Source: a virus
DNA length: 41,735 bases
Reading direction: 5' to 3' (one strand)
UHGV virus genome: UHGV-1359735
The translations under genes were made by a program, and so were the position numbers. Each line of letters opens with the position of its first letter. The first letter of the stretch is position 1. The notes under the pieces were generated by a model that was not told the DNA's origin, did no database searches, and saw only the letters and a list, made by a program, of their open reading frames with translations. This document shows, one piece after another, positions 3,846-41,681 of the stretch.

Positions 3846-4427
3846 ATGAAAAGCATCTACGACATACGACGCGACAACCTCAACGAGATAATCCGGAAGG
3901 ATTTCGATAACACGCAACTCCGGTTTGCCGAGAGATTCAAAAAATCAGCGAATCTCGTTAACAGGTGGAGCAAGGGGACAAAAAATATCGGCGCCAACGC
4001 GGCACGCGAGATCGAGTCGTTCGCCGGGAAAGGTCGTTTCTGGCTGGATATCGACCATCTGTCAGATACCCCGACGCTGCCGGAGATTATCGACCCGCAG
4101 GAATGGAGTGTGGAAAAGCAGGCAGCGTTTACCCTTGGTGTATGGATGGGACAGCATCCGGATCTGAACTCAGAGAAAAAGGTTTCGGAAGCGGCCGGTA
4201 TCGGCCAGGCGACCGTAAATCGCATCCTGAACTGCGAAGGTTCCACCAGCATTGGCGTACTGTCGGCTATCGCCAGCGCGTTCGGCCGCGATGCATATGA
4301 GCTGATCCTGCCGCCTGGTAATGCTGGTCTGATTGACTATGACCACCATGAATACGCCGGGCTGCCGCAGGAAGAGAAAAACAAGATCGCCGCCTTCATC
4401 AAGTTCATCGTCAGCCAGAACCAGTAA
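3846..4427 (+). CDS. Immunity repressor with two XRE-type HTH domains, no S24 peptidase domain
   Basis: 193 aa with two HTH-like segments (res ~20-60 and ~118-165). Divergent to the cro-like gene across the operator cluster. No SD before the ATG, so possibly leaderless like lambda cI. Confidence 0.7.
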   Translation: MKSIYDIRRDNLNEIIRKDFDNTQLRFAERFKKSANLVNRWSKGTKNIGANAAREIESFAGKGRFWLDIDHLSDTPTLPEIIDPQEWSVEKQAAFTLGVWMGQHPDLNSEKKVSEAAGIGQATVNRILNCEGSTSIGVLSAIASAFGRDAYELILPPGNAGLIDYDHHEYAGLPQEEKNKIAAFIKFIVSQNQ

Positions 4428-9324: not shown

Positions 9325-10575
9325 CTATTGTTCATTCATCCACTTTTCAAATGCAGACGGGGAGAACGGCACCAGGTCGTAATGCTCCCCGTTTATCCAT
9401 GCATCAACCATATTTGCCCACTGCTGCAGCATGTAGGCCCGCTGCCTGGAATACTCGGCTTTGTTGTAAACCGCCCTCACGCCCTTCTGTTCATGCGCCA
9501 GCGCCTTCTCTATCCAGTCTGACGGGAATCCCGCTTCATGCAAAAGCGTGCTCGCTGTGCGCCGCAGGTCGTGCACCGTGAGAGGTTGAAGGCTCTCCCC
9601 GGCATCCGCTGCCGCAGCAACCGCGCGATCGATGACTGAGTTCAGAGCGGCATTGGATAACGGCTTACTGGTGCTGTAGCGCCCGGGCAGAAGATAGTCA
9701 CTCCCGCCTGCGCACATCTGGAGGCCTACCATCAGATCCTGCGCCTGAGGCGGAAGGTAGATGACGTGCGACCGGCTCCCCTTCATCCTGTCAGATGGGA
9801 TCGTCCAGGTTCCTTTGCTGAAATCGACCTCTTTCCACGTCGCCATGATGAACTCGGTTTTGCGCACCATCGTGATCAGGATGAGCTTCACAGCCAGTTT
9901 TAAGGTTGGCAACGTGCTGACGGTGTCGAGCGACCTGAACAGCACGCCGATTTCTTCCGGCTGCAGGCAACGGTCACGCGGTTTAAACATGGCGATCGCT
10001 GAAGGTTTGATATCTGCGGCAGGGTTGAATAACCCATGCCCGCGGTCATTGGCGTACCGATACACGCTGCTAATTATTTCACGCGCCTGCACCGCCGTCG
10101 CACGTCCGCCGCGCTCGACTATGCGATCGCAAAGATCACGCACCATAGGGGTCGTTATCTCGGACATCATTTTGTTTCCGAGAACAGGCAAAATATCCCG
10201 GTCGATTACTGATTGCTTCATAGACCGCGTGCTGTCGGCCAGGACCACATGTTTCATGTAGGCGTCGGTATGTACCGTAAATGTTTCGGCGCCGCGGATC
10301 CGTTTGATACCGTCACGCTTCGCCGCAGCCGGCGACTGGCCTGCGTTCAGCAGCTTTTTAGCGGCTATCAGTTGATCCCTGGCTTCAGCCAGCGTGATAC
10401 CGTCACGACCATACTGACCGATAACCAGCGTCTCCCGGCGGCCGTTGATGCGGTAATCGTAACGAAACGAGATGGTACCTGAGATCAGCACGGCTACATA
10501 CAGCCCGTCACGATCGGAGACCTTGTACATTTTGCCCTGCGGTTTCAGGTTTTTTAGTTTGGTATCGGTAAGCAC
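9325..10575 (-). CDS. int: Tyrosine integrase (P4-type, N-terminal arm-binding DUF4102-like domain)
   Basis: N-terminus MLTDTKLKNLKPQGKMYKVSDRDGLYVAV typical of P4-like integrases; C-terminal catalytic HDLRRTASTLL...Y; GTG start with GGGTGA SD. Confidence 0.9.
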   Translation of the reverse strand: MLTDTKLKNLKPQGKMYKVSDRDGLYVAVLISGTISFRYDYRINGRRETLVIGQYGRDGITLAEARDQLIAAKKLLNAGQSPAAAKRDGIKRIRGAETFTVHTDAYMKHVVLADSTRSMKQSVIDRDILPVLGNKMMSEITTPMVRDLCDRIVERGGRATAVQAREIISSVYRYANDRGHGLFNPAADIKPSAIAMFKPRDRCLQPEEIGVLFRSLDTVSTLPTLKLAVKLILITMVRKTEFIMATWKEVDFSKGTWTIPSDRMKGSRSHVIYLPPQAQDLMVGLQMCAGGSDYLLPGRYSTSKPLSNAALNSVIDRAVAAAADAGESLQPLTVHDLRRTASTLLHEAGFPSDWIEKALAHEQKGVRAVYNKAEYSRQRAYMLQQWANMVDAWINGEHYDLVPFSPSAFEKWMNEQ

Positions 10576-18182: not shown

Positions 18183-18256
18183 ATAAAAACCTTCTGGAAA
18201 ACCCTGTTACCTTTTGATATATGTATATATATACAGTATTTATCGGAGTAATCCTA

Positions 18257-18517
18257 ATGCCAGAGCGGTACCAGTATCCTGTCGACGAAGGTTTTGCGGA
18301 TCGTATTCACACCCCGGAAGGGGTCAGATCCCTGGTTGTAAAATCACAGCTGATGGAGTTGCTCAGGGAGATGGAGCGAGACGGCCACGATGTCAGCGGT
18401 GCGGCGGCGGAACTGGTGGCACTGGTTAACTATGTGACAAGCTCGCAGCTGTCGATGCGGGAGCTGCAAACACACCTGGATTTCTGCGCAATGCAGATTA
18501 GACAACATTTAAAGTAA
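18257..18517 (+). CDS. Small protein homologous to the C-terminal domain of the Ant antirepressor (86 aa)
   Basis: ATG 18257 after GGAG SD; about 50% identity to the C-terminal ~75 aa of the 20051..20740 product (IH.P.G.R.L..S.M.LLRE...DGHDVSGAAAE). Preceded by an operator and a LexA-like box. Confidence 0.5.
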   Translation: MPERYQYPVDEGFADRIHTPEGVRSLVVKSQLMELLREMERDGHDVSGAAAELVALVNYVTSSQLSMRELQTHLDFCAMQIRQHLK

Positions 18518-18582: not shown

Positions 18583-18738
18583 ATGAATGTGTTTTTAAAA
18601 AAAGAGTCTAATTCTTTAACTTCCACTGTAAAAATGCTAATAGTGGCAATTGTTACATATCAGATCGGGATAGGATGGGGGCTAATATGCATTGCTACTA
18701 TAAATGTGCTCCCATCCATAACAATAAAATTTAATTAA
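18583..18738 (+). CDS. Small membrane peptide (51 aa)
   Basis: ATG 18583 after GGTGG SD; one TM helix (MLIVAIVTYQIGIGWGLICIATI); 3' end overlaps the convergent 283-aa gene by 8 nt; AT-rich. Confidence 0.3.
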   Translation: MNVFLKKESNSLTSTVKMLIVAIVTYQIGIGWGLICIATINVLPSITIKFN

Positions 18739-19582
18739 GTTTTACACTCATTTGCCCAACATAATTAAACGGGTTTGATTTATCTATTCTTCTTAATGAC
18801 ATGGCAGAAGAAAAGTTCACAAAAGTACTAAATCCGTAGGTTGCTGAAGCTAAAATAGCACCTGTTTCTGGAAGACCTATTGATTTGGCGCCAAAATACG
18901 CTGCACCTGCATTTGTTACTATCTCAGGAATATTGAAGTTAAATTTTACTTCTGATAAGTTAAATTTTATACGGCTTTCACCATACAATCTAATAACATC
19001 TGCGCAAGCTTTATCTATCTCATTTATTGCCACCTTAAGTTCTAAGTCTCTGTTTTGCGAATTTAATACTCTTGTGTTAAGTTCATTAATTTTATTCATG
19101 AGGTTTTCTAGTTCCCCCTTTCTTTTAAGCCTGAACTCCAATATATCATGGATGTTTACACTTTCATCAGGCTCTGGAATTGCATTTATCAAAGTAAATA
19201 ACTCACCATTATCCGGAGCAACCTCATTGCTATTCTTAATCAATACTTTATCAGCCTCACTAGCAATAAAATTTATATCTTTTCGCGCAAGTGAATCAAT
19301 CATAAATTTCATATTTGCGTCATATAATAGCGTAGCAAAATCACCACTGCCATTGATACGTAACATTACCTCAGTAAATAACCCTTCCCTTTTAAGTTCT
19401 GGTATACCTGGGGTTTCGTCATTAGAGATATTAATTAAATTGTTGTTTGTTGTAATTATTTTATCCCAATAAAGAGCATTTATTAATAACTTCCTATAGT
19501 TTAAATTAGATTCTGCTATATGTATGCTATTATTATCTGCGTTAATAAACATATCAGGAAACATTAAAACATGATTTTCCAT
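18731..19582 (-). CDS. Hypothetical 283-aa protein, very AT-rich moron (candidate defense/exclusion gene)
   Basis: Long clean ORF with Asn/Ile/Lys-rich composition; GC about 30% versus the ~52% backbone; isolated between tailspike and ant. Confidence 0.5.
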   Translation of the reverse strand: MENHVLMFPDMFINADNNSIHIAESNLNYRKLLINALYWDKIITTNNNLINISNDETPGIPELKREGLFTEVMLRINGSGDFATLLYDANMKFMIDSLARKDINFIASEADKVLIKNSNEVAPDNGELFTLINAIPEPDESVNIHDILEFRLKRKGELENLMNKINELNTRVLNSQNRDLELKVAINEIDKACADVIRLYGESRIKFNLSEVKFNFNIPEIVTNAGAAYFGAKSIGLPETGAILASATYGFSTFVNFSSAMSLRRIDKSNPFNYVGQMSVKLN

Positions 19583-19898: not shown

Positions 19899-20050
19899 TG
19901 CACGCGCTCTGACGCACCTATCCAATGGTGGGCTGGGCGGGGGTCCGAAAGGACGCCGGTATCCGTTTAGGCCGGTACGCCAACTCCGTTCAGTTCACCA
20001 CCAGTAATTGGCGTTGCGGTGGTGATAACTCTACTAAGCGGGGTATCACA

Positions 20051-20740
20051 ATGAACACCAAACCTTCCATTTTCAATTTCGAATCAGACTCAGCTATTCG
20101 CGCCATTATGATCGATGGCAATCCTTGGTTTTTTGCATCCGATGTTTGCCGCGCGATTGGCATCGCAAACCATCGTGATGCAGTTCGCAAACTTGATGAT
20201 GACGAGAAGGGCGTCGGCTCAACCGACACCCTTGGTGGTGAGCAAGAATCAGTTATCATCTCCGAGTCTGGCCTCTACACTCTTATCCTCCGCTGCCGCG
20301 ATGCGGTGACGCCGGGCACCATCCCCTACCGCTTCCGCAAATGGGTAACCAGCGAGGTGCTGCCGCAGATCCGCAAGACTGGCCGCTACGTTCGGGAAGA
20401 ACTCTCCCAGGCTGATAAAGCCCGCATGCTGGCGCAGGAGATGACCAGCAGCATGTTGCCGGCGATCATGGATGCATTGCAGATCGAGCAGAAGCACTAC
20501 ACCTTCCCTCTTAACCGACGCTATCAGGATCACATCCATTCACCTGATGGCCTGCGTGAACTGGCGAAAAGCTCAATGGTGATGAAGCTGCTCCGCGAAC
20601 TCGATGCTGACGGGCATGATGTGTCCGGCGCCGCCGCAGAGGTCACAGCTATGCTCAGCTACATTGTTGGTATCGGCGCCGTACTGCGCGACATAGAGAC
20701 GCATGCTCAGTACGTGATGGCTAAAGCCAAGGGTTACTGA
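20051..20740 (+). CDS. ant: Antirepressor (BRO-N/Ant family)
   Basis: Starts MNTKPSIFNFESDSAIRAIMIDGNPWFFASDVCRAIG..., the BRO-N domain typical of Ant antirepressors; track ORF 19925..20740, probable start ATG 20051. Confidence 0.75.
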   Translation: MNTKPSIFNFESDSAIRAIMIDGNPWFFASDVCRAIGIANHRDAVRKLDDDEKGVGSTDTLGGEQESVIISESGLYTLILRCRDAVTPGTIPYRFRKWVTSEVLPQIRKTGRYVREELSQADKARMLAQEMTSSMLPAIMDALQIEQKHYTFPLNRRYQDHIHSPDGLRELAKSSMVMKLLRELDADGHDVSGAAAEVTAMLSYIVGIGAVLRDIETHAQYVMAKAKGY

Positions 20741-38831: not shown

Positions 38832-40305
38832 ACGCCCACGGGTCGTACTCGCTGATCACGTTGGGCTGCTTGCCGCCGGCAGCGGGGAAATCTGAACGCT
38901 TCGCCACTGGATAGGCGAACGTCAGAAGCAGCGCATCGCCCTTGCCCGGCGACCGACCCAGACGCTCTTTGATATCCTCTTTCGGCTCCATGACGATCTT
39001 ACCGTCTACCCTCACCTTGTACTCTGCCGCTGACAGATCATCCGCCGTCTCCTGGTCGTCCAGCGCGCCGCCGAGCTTGAGCCACGTCTTGCAGGCGTTG
39101 AACATCTCTCCGCGCTTATTCAGCATCTGAGGATCTGCCGATGCGCCGCCGAACGGCACAAGCTGCCAGGTGCGACCCCAGCCGTCACCGATGGACTTCA
39201 GCCCGGTACCGTAGCCGAAGTCGATAAACACCGCATCAGCCTGGTACTGGTCCTCAAAATCAGCGATACGCTTCGCCATAATCAGATCGTCGGTGGTCTT
39301 GTTGCCGGTCCACAGCACTTTGCTGTGCAGTCCCTGGCGGAAATAAATCACTGCATCATCCACGCCGGAATATGCTGGGTCGACGCCGATTATCCGCGGG
39401 GCGTGCGCCACCTGCGCAGCGGTCACAACGCGCTTCATCGCCTCATCAGTCAGCCCGGTAGGGATGAACTGCAGCTCCGACGCATCAGGGAAGATCCCCC
39501 GCACGCGGACCTTCACAAAGTCGCTATCCTCGCCGTAGTCATCGACCCATTTCTGCAGCTGCTGCTTGTTGGTGCCTTCGACGGTGCGGCTGTCGATTTG
39601 CGCGCACTTCCAGCGGTGCTTGTATTTGCGGAAGCACTCCCGGAATCGCCCGGTGTTGCGCGTCGGGTTACCGAACGCCACCCAGATAATTTCGGTGTCT
39701 TCGTCCGTCAGCGCGCCCTCGGCAACTTCCCAGACAAGATCTGCGATGTTGGATGCTTCGTCGAACACCACAACGATGCGCTTACGCTCGTTGTGCAGGC
39801 CCGCAAACGCCTCGGTGTTGTGCTCAGACCAGGGAATAGCATCGGCGCGCCAGCGTTTGTCGTGGCCCGGATCGTTGCTGTACATCGCGGTGGCTGTGCA
39901 GGTGAACCACTCTTTCGTGATAGCCAGGTTCGACCATTTGATGATTTCCGGCCAGGTCTTCGTGCGCAGCTGGTTGTCGGTGTTAGCGGTCACCACCACC
40001 TTGCAATCTTCACAGGTGGACATGGCCCAGTTAATCAGCATCGAGATGAAAGCAGATTTACCGATACCGTGACCGGAGGCCCGGGCAATCATCAGCGGCT
40101 GGTGACGTGTCGCGGGATTCTGCAGGTGCTCGCCTATCTCGCGGAATGCGTCAGCCTGCCACTGTCGCGGCCCGGAGGCGTGCGCCAGTTCTGTGCCATC
40201 CTCGCCCCACGGGAACGCATACAGCGCATAGCCCAGCGGGTCATGGGTGAAGCTGGCGATATCGTCGATCAGCTGTTCTTCCGGGGATAAAGCGGCGTCT
40301 GTCAC
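38830..40305 (-). CDS. terL: Terminase large subunit
   Basis: 491 aa; Walker A-like GHGIGKS; acidic nuclease motifs; GTGA-coupled to TerS; GGTGGTGA SD. Confidence 0.85.
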   Translation of the reverse strand: MTDAALSPEEQLIDDIASFTHDPLGYALYAFPWGEDGTELAHASGPRQWQADAFREIGEHLQNPATRHQPLMIARASGHGIGKSAFISMLINWAMSTCEDCKVVVTANTDNQLRTKTWPEIIKWSNLAITKEWFTCTATAMYSNDPGHDKRWRADAIPWSEHNTEAFAGLHNERKRIVVVFDEASNIADLVWEVAEGALTDEDTEIIWVAFGNPTRNTGRFRECFRKYKHRWKCAQIDSRTVEGTNKQQLQKWVDDYGEDSDFVKVRVRGIFPDASELQFIPTGLTDEAMKRVVTAAQVAHAPRIIGVDPAYSGVDDAVIYFRQGLHSKVLWTGNKTTDDLIMAKRIADFEDQYQADAVFIDFGYGTGLKSIGDGWGRTWQLVPFGGASADPQMLNKRGEMFNACKTWLKLGGALDDQETADDLSAAEYKVRVDGKIVMEPKEDIKERLGRSPGKGDALLLTFAYPVAKRSDFPAAGGKQPNVISEYDPWA

Positions 40306-40886
40306 TGGTCACCACCCTGGTGTTCTTTCAGGCGGCGCCGGGCGGCGGCCATGCGGTCGGCAATTGTGACGTTCACGTTAACTTCCATGCGCTCTTTGAA
40401 CGCGTTAACGTCGACGTGCTTACCGATTAGCTCGAGGTTCTTCACCTTGTCGGGCCATTTTATTTTCTTGAGGATGGTCTCTATCGATGTCTCATCCATG
40501 TTCATGATGGTTGAGGACAGGTCAAACCCGCTGAGCGTGGTTCGCCAGATTTTCGGCCACTCGCGGATAGGCTTCAGGCTGCCGTCATCGTTCAGGATAT
40601 CCAGCACGTCCATCTGGTCGATTTCCACCAGGCGCAGCAGCACGTAATCGGCGCTGACGCGCAGGCGCTTGTTGCGCTCTTCCATGAGCTCAGCGATTCG
40701 TTTCTGGATACGCTCATCACGCATCATCGTGCTGGCTTTGACGTGGGCAGACTTTGGGGAAAACCCGGCATTGATGGCCGCCTGCGTCTGATTTTCAGGG
40801 CATTTCACATACTCCTGGGCGTAGGCTTCCTGCATCACCGTCAACGGTTTGTACTGAGTTGATTTGCGCTTCGGATCCTTTGGCAT
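40302..40886 (-). CDS. terS: Terminase small subunit
   Basis: Probable ATG 40886 (GGGGTG SD; track start GTG 40895). N-terminal HTH-like segment MQEAYAQEYVKCPENQTQAAINAGFS typical of Terminase_2-type TerS. Confidence 0.7.
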   Translation of the reverse strand: MPKDPKRKSTQYKPLTVMQEAYAQEYVKCPENQTQAAINAGFSPKSAHVKASTMMRDERIQKRIAELMEERNKRLRVSADYVLLRLVEIDQMDVLDILNDDGSLKPIREWPKIWRTTLSGFDLSSTIMNMDETSIETILKKIKWPDKVKNLELIGKHVDVNAFKERMEVNVNVTIADRMAAARRRLKEHQGGDQ

Positions 40887-40906
40887 GGTAAACACCCCGA
40901 AAATAA

Positions 40907-40921
40907 TTACCCTTTCGGTAA
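40907..40921. promoter_or_regulatory. Operator-like palindrome TTACCctttcGGTAA immediately upstream of terS
   Basis: On the minus strand a TATTAT -10-like hexamer directly precedes the palindrome; no good -35 (activator-dependent late promoter?). Confidence 0.5.
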
Positions 40922-40943
40922 TAATACCATGCCACCAGCGATG

Positions 40944-41273
40944 TTACATGATCGGAATATCATCATCACTCACCCATCCGGCCCGGTTTATCAGGTAGGT
41001 AACGACTCCCCGCACTTCAACATCGTCCAGGGCGTCCCCTTCCAGCGCCTCACCATCATCAGTGATCAGCGCCTGGCCACGGACAACAGCGAATTCAGTT
41101 TTCCCGGCATATGCGATAAGAACATGATCACCCTGCTTTGGCCGGCGGCAGACATCGACGATGGCATAACCGGCGGCAGTCTCCAGGGCGCGACAGTTGG
41201 CGTCATACTGACAAAGGCGGGAAACGGTTAGCGTTTGCTCAACGTAGTCTGCGGCAGGTGATGGAAACCCCAT
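40944..41273 (-). CDS. UmuD'-like (HumD-like) S24-fold protein, pre-truncated and lacking the Ser/Lys dyad
   Basis: Begins MGFPSPAADYVEQ, which is the N-terminus of processed E. coli UmuD' (GFPSPAADYVEQ after the Cys24-Gly25 cleavage site). C-terminal GDHVLIAYAGKTEFAVVRGQ aligns with UmuD GDIVIAAVDGEFTVKKLQ. The Ser60 loop is deleted and Lys97 is replaced by Arg. GAGG SD. A LexA box lies 19-38 nt upstream. Confidence 0.7.
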   Translation of the reverse strand: MGFPSPAADYVEQTLTVSRLCQYDANCRALETAAGYAIVDVCRRPKQGDHVLIAYAGKTEFAVVRGQALITDDGEALEGDALDDVEVRGVVTYLINRAGWVSDDDIPIM

Positions 41274-41291
41274 GATGACCTCACATAAAAA

Positions 41292-41311
41292 TACTGTATA
41301 TTTAAACAGTA
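41292..41311. promoter_or_regulatory. LexA (SOS) box TACTGTATATTTAAACAGTA
   Basis: Perfect CTGT-N8-ACAG with the flanking TA..TA of the enterobacterial consensus; overlaps the promoter region of the UmuD'-like gene. Confidence 0.8.
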
Positions 41312-41348
41312 CAATCATGCGAGGATTTAGTCAATCTGTCGTGACATG

Positions 41349-41681
41349 TCACAGCGGTAGTTTTGTTTCGTGCCAGCCAAGAGTGGCCCAGCACTGAGAA
41401 TCACCAGTGCAAGGGCAGGATGCCACCGGCAGTTGATCGCCACACTTGCCGCAGCGGCGTTTGCTGATGGCGTTAATCCGGCCGCGCACCCGGGCGTCAT
41501 CCTGGCGGATAAGCAACGCGATGTACTCGGCCATTTCATAGGGATCGCGACCAGGGCGCCGGGCGGCGCAGTTCCGCGCCAGCATCTCCTGCTCATCCAG
41601 CACCAGTTCAATTTTGCGCTCACCGGCGGCGGACTGCCGCGCGCGCTGCGCGGCTTTACGTTCTGCGGGGGATTTAAGCAC
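41349..41681 (-). CDS. Zn-finger (CxxC...CxC) basic protein, possible late-gene regulator
   Basis: GTG start after AGGTGA SD; CGKCGDQLPVASCPC motif; located just upstream of the terminase operon. The overlapping alternative frame 41327..41698 looks like a GC-skew artefact. Confidence 0.4.
   Translation of the reverse strand: MLKSPAERKAAQRARQSAAGERKIELVLDEQEMLARNCAARRPGRDPYEMAEYIALLIRQDDARVRGRINAISKRRCGKCGDQLPVASCPCTGDSQCWATLGWHETKLPL

Follow-up and report, generated by a model that had tools for sequence, protein, structure and literature searches.

Activation of DNA polymerase V (Pol V) is delayed by the slow, RecA*-dependent cleavage of UmuD, and this delay is a main brake on SOS mutagenesis. 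The part played by the cleaved form, UmuD', is described in published work summarized in PMC11791011: UmuD' without its N-terminal arm still dimerizes and is fully defective in mutagenesis, deletion or substitution of a single N-terminal residue alters UV mutagenesis, and, in AlphaFold models of UmuD'2C-RecA, one UmuD' arm has its conserved N-terminal end beside the UmuC active site while the C-terminal carboxylate of UmuC docks on the other protomer at S36, T71, K73, and E69 of UmuD' (S60, T95, K97, and E93 of UmuD). A phage counterpart, HumD of P1, "functionally complements E. coli UmuD'" according to the P1 database record, and the title of McLenigan 1999 points to the same. Here, we describe a gene of this kind in the virus genome UHGV-1359735, a stretch of 41,735 nucleotides (nt) that is referred to as the window. 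The identity of the gene is secure: it is a LexA-boxed moron for a pre-truncated, protease-dead, HumD-like UmuD' homolog. Its product most probably acts on host UmuC/Pol V, by a mechanism that we infer below from the conserved parts of the protein.

The mechanically called open reading frame (ORF) runs from 40944 to 41318 on the minus strand and is longer than the gene by an in-frame ATG at 41318. That ATG was rejected as the start because it lies upstream of the LexA operator and because the same frame is interrupted by stops in relatives; the ATG at 41273 is therefore taken as the real start. Translation from it gives a protein of 109 amino acids (aa), MGFPSPAADYVEQTLTVSRLCQYDANCRALETAAGYAIVDVCRRPKQGDHVLIAYAGKTEFAVVRGQALITDDGEALEGDALDDVEVRGVVTYLINRAGWVSDDDIPIM, with the N-terminus MGFPSPAADYVEQ.

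Homology to UmuD' was set by profile and structure comparison, since searches of Pfam returned nothing and the sequence match in the PDB was marginal. A phmmer search of the PDB matched UmuD and UmuD' only, with the alignment starting at Gly25 (E value [E], 2e-3); residues 2 to 41 aligned to residues 1 to 40 of UmuD' (25 to 64 of UmuD), and the match was driven by the first 12 residues, residues 2 to 13 being identical. When a profile of 36 family members was compared with E. coli UmuD by hhalign, residues 2 to 97 aligned to residues 25 to 137 (97.3%; E, 2e-11). The AlphaFold2 (AF2) model was confident and has the beta-fold of the Peptidase S24/UmuD-LexA superfamily, and the UmuD-RecA structure 8gmt was among its top structural matches. 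On these comparisons, the homology to UmuD' is judged to be real.

The preliminary description of this locus had held that the protein starts at the residue where RecA-mediated cleavage generates UmuD', that it is thereby pre-truncated, that the region of the catalytic Ser is deleted, and that the catalytic Lys is replaced by Arg. The first three points stood. The alignment begins at the Cys24/Gly25 cleavage point; the protein has a Met-Gly start, all 111 full-length family members begin M-[GA]-F-P-S-P, and there is no cleavable (Ala/Cys)-Gly site after an N-terminal segment. Both hhalign and MAFFT placed a gap of 12 residues over UmuD 57 to 68 (SGDSMIDGGISD); the loop that bears the nucleophile, Ser60, is gone, and the AF2 model has a three-residue turn there. 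The fourth point stood in part, as the catalytic Lys is absent and the residue aligned to it is not Arg: Lys97 of UmuD aligns to Ala62 by hhalign, or to Val64 with the shared Glu-Phe as anchor, and Arg65 aligns beside the Lys97 position. Because the Ser60 loop is deleted and no Lys occupies the Lys97 position, the protein lacks the Ser-Lys catalytic dyad and, as read from these alignments, cannot be a protease.

Similarity to HumD accompanied that to UmuD. The NCBIfam HumD model (NF051876) aligned end to end with the protein (residues 1 to 109 against 1 to 129; E, 5.4e-10), and a BLASTP comparison with P1 HumD gave 31% identity (E, 1e-9), the C-terminal tail included. On these alignments, the gene is a shortened, further degenerate sister of HumD and not an equivalog.

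The preliminary description had also placed a perfect LexA box over the promoter. The box, TACTGTATATTTAAACAGTA, lies at the coordinates given there, 18 nt upstream of the gene. Its half-sites are indeed perfect (TACTGT/ACAGTA arms), and it differs from TACTG(TA)5CAGTA at two positions, both in the spacer. It is the sole CTGT-N8-ACAG in the window, and 100 shuffles of the window gave zero sites within three mismatches of the consensus. Eighty related viral loci were fetched, of which 79 had enough upstream DNA, and a CTG-N10-CAG box with an AT-rich spacer occupied a fixed place in 77 of the 79. Where the gene stands alone (53 loci), the box starts 36 to 44 nt before the ATG, as in the window; in two-gene operons (24 loci), it lies about 275 to 283 nt before the gene and about 25 to 30 nt before an ORF of 79 aa, which encodes a winged-helix protein and has its stop overlapping the UmuD'-like gene's start. 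The E. coli umuDC box, which we take to be TACTGTATATAAAAACAGTA, is similar to the SOS boxes of the phage family, and several of the family's operons have that very string upstream.

A −35 hexamer stands at a distance of exactly 17 nt before the box in 66 of the 77 loci (TTGACT or TTGATC in 58 and CTTGAC in 8), and this spacing holds in both layouts and across otherwise unrelated flanks. The left arm of the box is read as a weak −10 because of the conserved −35 spacing, which places it in about 70 independent upstream regions; LexA on the box would mask this hexamer. A simple promoter scan called no promoter on the gene strand; it missed this one because the putative −10, TACTGT, matches TATAAT at only half of its positions. 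The overlap of box and promoter was thus upheld, with the predicted −10 lying in the left arm and the geometry kept in relatives. Together, these features constitute strong indirect evidence for control of the gene by LexA, which would bind at this box. The cassette is, as predicted from its sequence, self-contained, comprising a −35 element, a LexA box over the −10, a ribosome binding site, and one gene (Table 1).

Table 1. Positions of the UmuD'-like cassette and of other features discussed (window coordinates)
Feature	Position	Strand	Remarks
Mini UmuD'/HumD-like coding sequence, 109 aa	40944..41273	-	ATG 41273-41271, stop 40944-40946
N-terminal arm codons Gly2-Glu12 (GFPSPAADYVE)	41238..41270	-	Identical to UmuD 25-35
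C-terminal acidic/hydrophobic tail codons, DDDIPIM (residues 103-109)	40947..40967	-	Family pattern [DE][DE]xP[VI][IVM]-COOH
Shine-Dalgarno GAGG	41279..41282	-	5 nt before ATG; GAGG/GGGG kept there in relatives
LexA (SOS) box	41292..41311		TACTGTATATTTAAACAGTA on plus strand, TACTGTTTAAATATACAGTA on gene strand
Inferred −10 TACTGT (left LexA-box arm)	41306..41311	-	3/6 match to TATAAT
−35 hexamer TTGACT	41329..41334	-	17 nt upstream of box; from alignment of relatives' upstream regions
Terminase small subunit terS	40302..40895	-	PF03592, E 1e-28; probable start ATG 40886; about 57 nt downstream of gene
phrog_536 "transcriptional regulator," last early-right gene	41349..41681	-	Homolog of SPC32H gp051, 81% identity
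SPC32H-type repressor Rep	3846..4427	+	63% identity to SPC32H Rep; Pfam HTH_3 only
SPC32H-type antirepressor Ant	18257..18517	+	64% identity to SPC32H Ant
Degenerate LexA-like box ATATGTATATATATACAGTA before Ant	18219..18238	+	3 mismatches; left CTG changed to ATG

The protein belongs to PHROG 3469, "UmuD-like protein" (residues 1 to 104 against profile positions 1 to 104 of 106; E, 3e-47). A large protein collection held 217 cluster representatives, nearly all of 105 to 109 aa and most named "hypothetical protein," from Klebsiella, Enterobacter, Escherichia, Citrobacter, Raoultella, Salmonella, Kosakonia, and others. Relatives were present in 81 phage records, and the RefSeq copy of phage mEp390 is named "UmuD-like protein similar to HumD." A profile search run exhaustively over 1.84 billion representatives gave only 376 matches, so the family is compact; it turned up no sizeable group of full-length (uncleaved) members of the subfamily, and most of the longer matches look like mis-called starts or fusions. 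Two longer sequences are recorded here in their own right: P0129 (141 aa) joins a UmuD-like pro-peptide (..FIRPAELREIIALTLFSDSMQC|GFTSPAADYVE) to a body of this mini family and could be a recombinant of a full-length umuD with the family or an assembly artifact, and in P0166 the 79-aa partner is fused to the UmuD'-like protein. The exact window protein occurred in 5042 blocks of an assembly index, and the places read were chromosome-sized contigs. Close relatives were named Klebsiella, and related cassettes were found in Enterobacter, Escherichia, Citrobacter, Raoultella, and others; an mEp390-type operon, annotated "hypothetical protein," was present in 7 of 5426 complete E. coli genomes.

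Within the family, the N-terminus, M-G-F-P-S-P-A-x-D-Y-x-E, hardly varies: F, P, and S are found in 111 of 111 sequences, G in 107, and P6 in 110. All synonymous codons are used at the arm positions across the family. This free variation indicates that selection acts on the N-terminal peptide; a recent transfer from umuD was rejected as the cause of the identical N-terminus on the same ground. Further conserved blocks are ETxxG, ITxDGEAIEGEALDDV, the strand V.V.GVVT, and the tail [DE][DE]xP[VI][IVM]. The same pattern bears on the notion that the gene is what is left of a captured umuD or humD, decaying and without function, for which the lost catalytic loop and some 20 lost residues, with no Pfam match, could be adduced. 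That notion is scarcely credible and is effectively refuted by the conservation pattern: intact ORFs of 105 to 109 aa persist in hundreds of distinct sequences, with conserved columns and varying synonymous sites, and the promoter, the operator, and the ribosome binding site are conserved as well; the many index blocks with the exact protein and the confident AF2 model likewise speak against decay.

The tail of the window protein, DDDIPIM, had a low predicted local distance difference test score in the AF2 model and is probably flexible. The C-terminal peptide of E. coli SSB, DDDIPF, is a docking motif of many replication and repair proteins. The resemblance of DDDIPIM to it may be coincidence, yet the tail is conserved.

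Our favored reading, which we rate at roughly even chances from sequence comparison, is that the protein is a HumD-like UmuD' surrogate, SOS controlled, that acts through host UmuC. Capture of host UmuC had been proposed in the preliminary description, as had titration of RecA* or UmuD. In this reading, DNA damage would activate RecA*, LexA would be cleaved, and the promoter of the UmuD'-like gene would be freed. The protein would be made already "processed." A Met-Gly start leads to loss of the Met through methionine aminopeptidase, by an established rule, and such removal here would leave the N-terminus Gly-Phe-Pro-Ser-Pro, the same as that of cleaved UmuD. The invariant arm would then engage host UmuC, with the protein present as a homodimer or partnered with host UmuD or UmuD'; Pol V accessory function would be supplied without the slow UmuD cleavage step; and damaged phage and host DNA would be copied past its lesions at an early stage of SOS or of prophage induction. 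A function directed at UmuC fits because the phage family preserves exactly the N-terminal arm on which UmuD' depends and because HumD provides a precedent. Within 6 kb of the gene, no Y-family polymerase gene was found at the seven places that had Pfam-annotated neighbors, so any polymerase partner must be the host's. Because HumD complements UmuD', activation is, by analogy, more likely than inhibition.

Several observations weigh against this reading. The HumD model scored 39.3 bits against a curated cutoff of 120, which is below threshold, and no Pfam family matched at an E of ≤0.1, Peptidase_S24 (PF00717) included; nor did any homolog carry a precomputed Pfam domain. Relative to HumD and UmuD', about 20 residues are lost, the Ser60 loop among them. 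The most conserved segment of the family, ITxDGEAIEGEALDDV, has no UmuD counterpart, which points to a family-specific interaction. The residues at which the UmuC C-terminus is predicted to dock are mostly missing (Ser60 falls in the deletion, and neither Thr95 nor Lys97 is conserved); because the docking pocket is largely lost, a homodimer may fail to hold UmuC canonically. Given this loss, the protein might instead be inhibitory or act in a heterodimer with host UmuD or UmuD', and binding to UmuC could block Pol V as well as activate it.

An inhibitor of this kind would be a dominant-negative Pol V regulator that binds UmuC, or heterodimerizes with UmuD or UmuD', in a complex that would be non-productive for want of the active-site pocket. 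The outcome would be damped SOS mutagenesis or a prolonged UmuD2C-like checkpoint during phage replication. The deletion or replacement of the S60, T95, and K97 docking residues argues for it, and the retained N-terminal arm and C-terminal strand V.V.GVV make partner binding plausible. Heterodimers of UmuD and UmuD' do not support mutagenesis and are ClpXP targets, which gives a precedent for mixed dimers that inactivate. According to PMC8460599, mobile elements keep Pol V homologs of their own in check. We consider the dominant-negative explanation unlikely though credible, since the exact conservation of the N-terminus suits an activating arm and exceeds what a simple blocker would need. Function can survive without the Ser, as UmuD'(S60A) remains able to support mutagenesis, and HumD, the closest characterized relative, complements UmuD' by the P1 record.

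The heterodimer could also be productive. With its arm kept and its pocket deleted, the phage protein might serve as an arm donor that pairs with uncleaved host UmuD, which would supply the pocket. The inactive UmuD2C of early SOS would then become an active polymerase without RecA*-mediated processing of UmuD, and the DDDIPIM tail may also plug the complex into the SSB-binding network at stalled forks. We hold this version to be doubtful.

A different target is suggested by the fold, which is common to proteins that bind in the groove of the RecA* filament, as in the 8gmt match. On this view, the protein would mimic a substrate without being cleavable; seated in the groove, it would modulate SOS in the manner of DinI or PsiB, so that LexA, UmuD, or cI-type repressors are cleaved more slowly. 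In the cryo-electron microscopy structure of UmuD with RecA, Y52, V54 (printed as L54), and F94 form the pocket for Phe203 of RecA L2, D91 and E93 form an acidic patch, and the cleavage-site region touches RecA through F26 and P29. The equivalents of F26 and P29 are invariant in the phage family, and the operon lies beside a dinI homolog in HK97-like phages. Two of the three pocket residues are, however, lost (Y52 is replaced by Ala29 and V54 by an almost invariant Glu31), D91 and E93 are not clearly kept, and the contacts F18, L21, and Q23 lie in the first 24 residues, which are absent here. The acidity of the protein (isoelectric point, 4.3; net charge, −9) recalls the acidic patches of groove binders but does not discriminate, as UmuD' is about equally acidic. 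Canonical binding to the RecA groove is therefore not well supported by the residue comparison, and we regard this explanation as quite unlikely.

The window holds the entire genome, circularly permuted and in reverse orientation, of a Klebsiella podophage of the epsilon15/SPC32H-like (Uetakevirus-like) type; of the earlier label "lambdoid/podo-like," the podophage part was right and the lambdoid part was not. The integrase (9325 to 10575, minus strand) lies mid-window, and the gene order is a circular permutation of the SPC32H map, so the window looks like a complete phage genome and not like a flanked prophage. Its repressor, Rep, has a helix-turn-helix domain only and no S24 domain, in agreement with the preliminary description, in which it was held not to be SOS cleavable. 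In the account given in PMC7380047, which cites Kim & Ryu 2013, SPC32H-type phages are induced by LexA-controlled Ant and not by repressor cleavage. The Ant operator of SPC32H is the canonical TACTGTATGTTTATACAGTG, whereas the box at the equivalent place in the window is degenerate; LexA control of Ant may thus be weakened in this phage. With the Ant operator changed from CTG to ATG, the umuD'-like gene holds the only canonical SOS box in the window. Near Ant, an ORF of 271 aa (19925 to 20740, plus strand) combines a Bro-N domain (PF02498; E, 2e-19) with a C-terminal part that is 41% identical to SPC32H Ant; by these matches, it is a second, fused antirepressor-like protein. An ORF with DUF6236 (18731 to 19582, minus strand) lies between the two.

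This arrangement raises the question of whether the gene product is itself a LexA-controlled antirepressor or induction trigger, like Tum, GfoA, or SPC32H Ant, that inactivates the phage repressor. A small LexA-controlled gene together with a non-cleavable repressor is the typical layout of such systems (PMC7380047; Lemire 2011), and the degenerate Ant operator would leave the umuD'-like gene as the canonically boxed one. The phage, however, already has Ant and the second protein with Bro-N/Ant-like domains; the preliminary suggestion of an SOS sensor that feeds into induction is unlikely for the same reason. Antirepressors are repressor specific, whereas the UmuD'-like protein is conserved over three phage types, and the homolog of SPC32H Ant in this phage is a different gene. 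SPC32H and epsilon15 relatives do without the gene, and an antirepressor role explains nothing of the invariant UmuD' N-terminus. We therefore regard an antirepressor as very unlikely. Both RecA* modulation and antirepression are less likely than action on UmuC/Pol V.

As the preliminary description had stated, the gene is next to the terminase operon: terS, identified by its terminase domain, starts a short distance downstream on the same strand. No convincing intrinsic terminator was found between the stop of the umuD'-like gene and terS (40884 to 40955, minus strand); a weak hairpin in that interval, CAUGGUA/UACCAUG, includes the terS start codon and was not significant (z, −1.6). SOS-driven transcripts might therefore run into the terminase genes. 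In SPC32H, no gene lies between gp051 and terS, gp051 being followed by the genome end and terS, which marks the UmuD'-like cassette as an insertion in the window lineage. The slot from 41349 to 40895 is a cargo slot; relatives L088 to L092 have extra ORFs there, one of which encodes a 495-aa reverse transcriptase of the retron type (PF00078; L090, 4435 to 5922). Phage vB_EcoS-733R5 (L086), which has a relative of the gene, also has a retron-type reverse transcriptase nearby.

Family members occupy three kinds of site: upstream of terS in epsilon15-like podophages of Klebsiella and Enterobacter; the nin region of a Kluyvera lambdoid prophage; and beside attP and a divergent dinI homolog in HK97-like coliphages, among them mEp390 and Flotzy. 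Protein identity across these phage types is 55 to 100%. Because it sits in different slots in three phage types, the cassette behaves as a mobile moron with its target in the host, and because the protein is conserved across phage types and layouts, that target should be a conserved host protein.

If the favored reading holds, a ready-made UmuD' surrogate present at LexA release could remove the brake imposed by UmuD cleavage; if the protein is inhibitory, it could tighten that brake. Should mutation rates under damage change, the gene would be a prophage-borne modifier of the pace of resistance evolution in clinical Klebsiella exposed to fluoroquinolones or other SOS-inducing drugs. If the protein donates its arm to host UmuD, SOS mutagenesis would be faster or stronger in lysogens than in non-lysogens. 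The phage, in turn, could gain Weigle-type reactivation of its damaged genome from a gene that it carries itself. The family also amounts to a natural experiment on the parts of UmuD' needed after cleavage, with the arm kept and the active-site pocket lost.

Set beside known systems, the gene resembles the antirepressor genes of 186 (Tum), Gifsy (GfoA/GftA), and SPC32H (Ant) in being a small LexA-boxed gene in a phage with a non-cleaved repressor; unlike them, its family travels among phages of different types and layouts, and its product has no sequence relation to Tum, GfoA/GftA, or Ant. Non-catalytic S24-like domains, such as the C-terminal domain of 186 CI, are oligomerization domains fused to DNA-binding domains, whereas the phage protein is free-standing and has a UmuD' arm. 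Its first 12 residues are identical to those of bacterial UmuD'; in contrast to UmuD', it is made directly, without RecA*-mediated self-cleavage, lacks the Ser60 loop and Lys97, has an extra C-terminal tail and an acidic motif of its own (ITxDGEAIEGEALDDV), and has no adjacent umuC.

The closest likeness is to HumD, and the analogy drawn in the preliminary description is borne out by the model alignment, the BLASTP match, the common tail, and the same box-to-ATG layout. Both proteins (and N15 gp26) start MGFPSPAADYVE, have no pro-peptide, and are phage encoded. They have the tail DDxPV[IM] in common (..DDDIPIM here and ..DDCPVI in HumD), which UmuD lacks. In P1, the annotated LexA site begins 39 nt ahead of the ATG of humD, with GAGG after it; in the window, the box begins 38 nt before the ATG. 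HumD differs in its length (129 aa against 109 aa) and, as we read the alignment, in its retention of Ser and Lys at the dyad positions. HumD has already been studied experimentally; the subfamily described here is recognized in PHROGs and in some annotations and is itself uncharacterized and structurally distinct. What is new, then, is an uncharacterized, shortened branch related to HumD.

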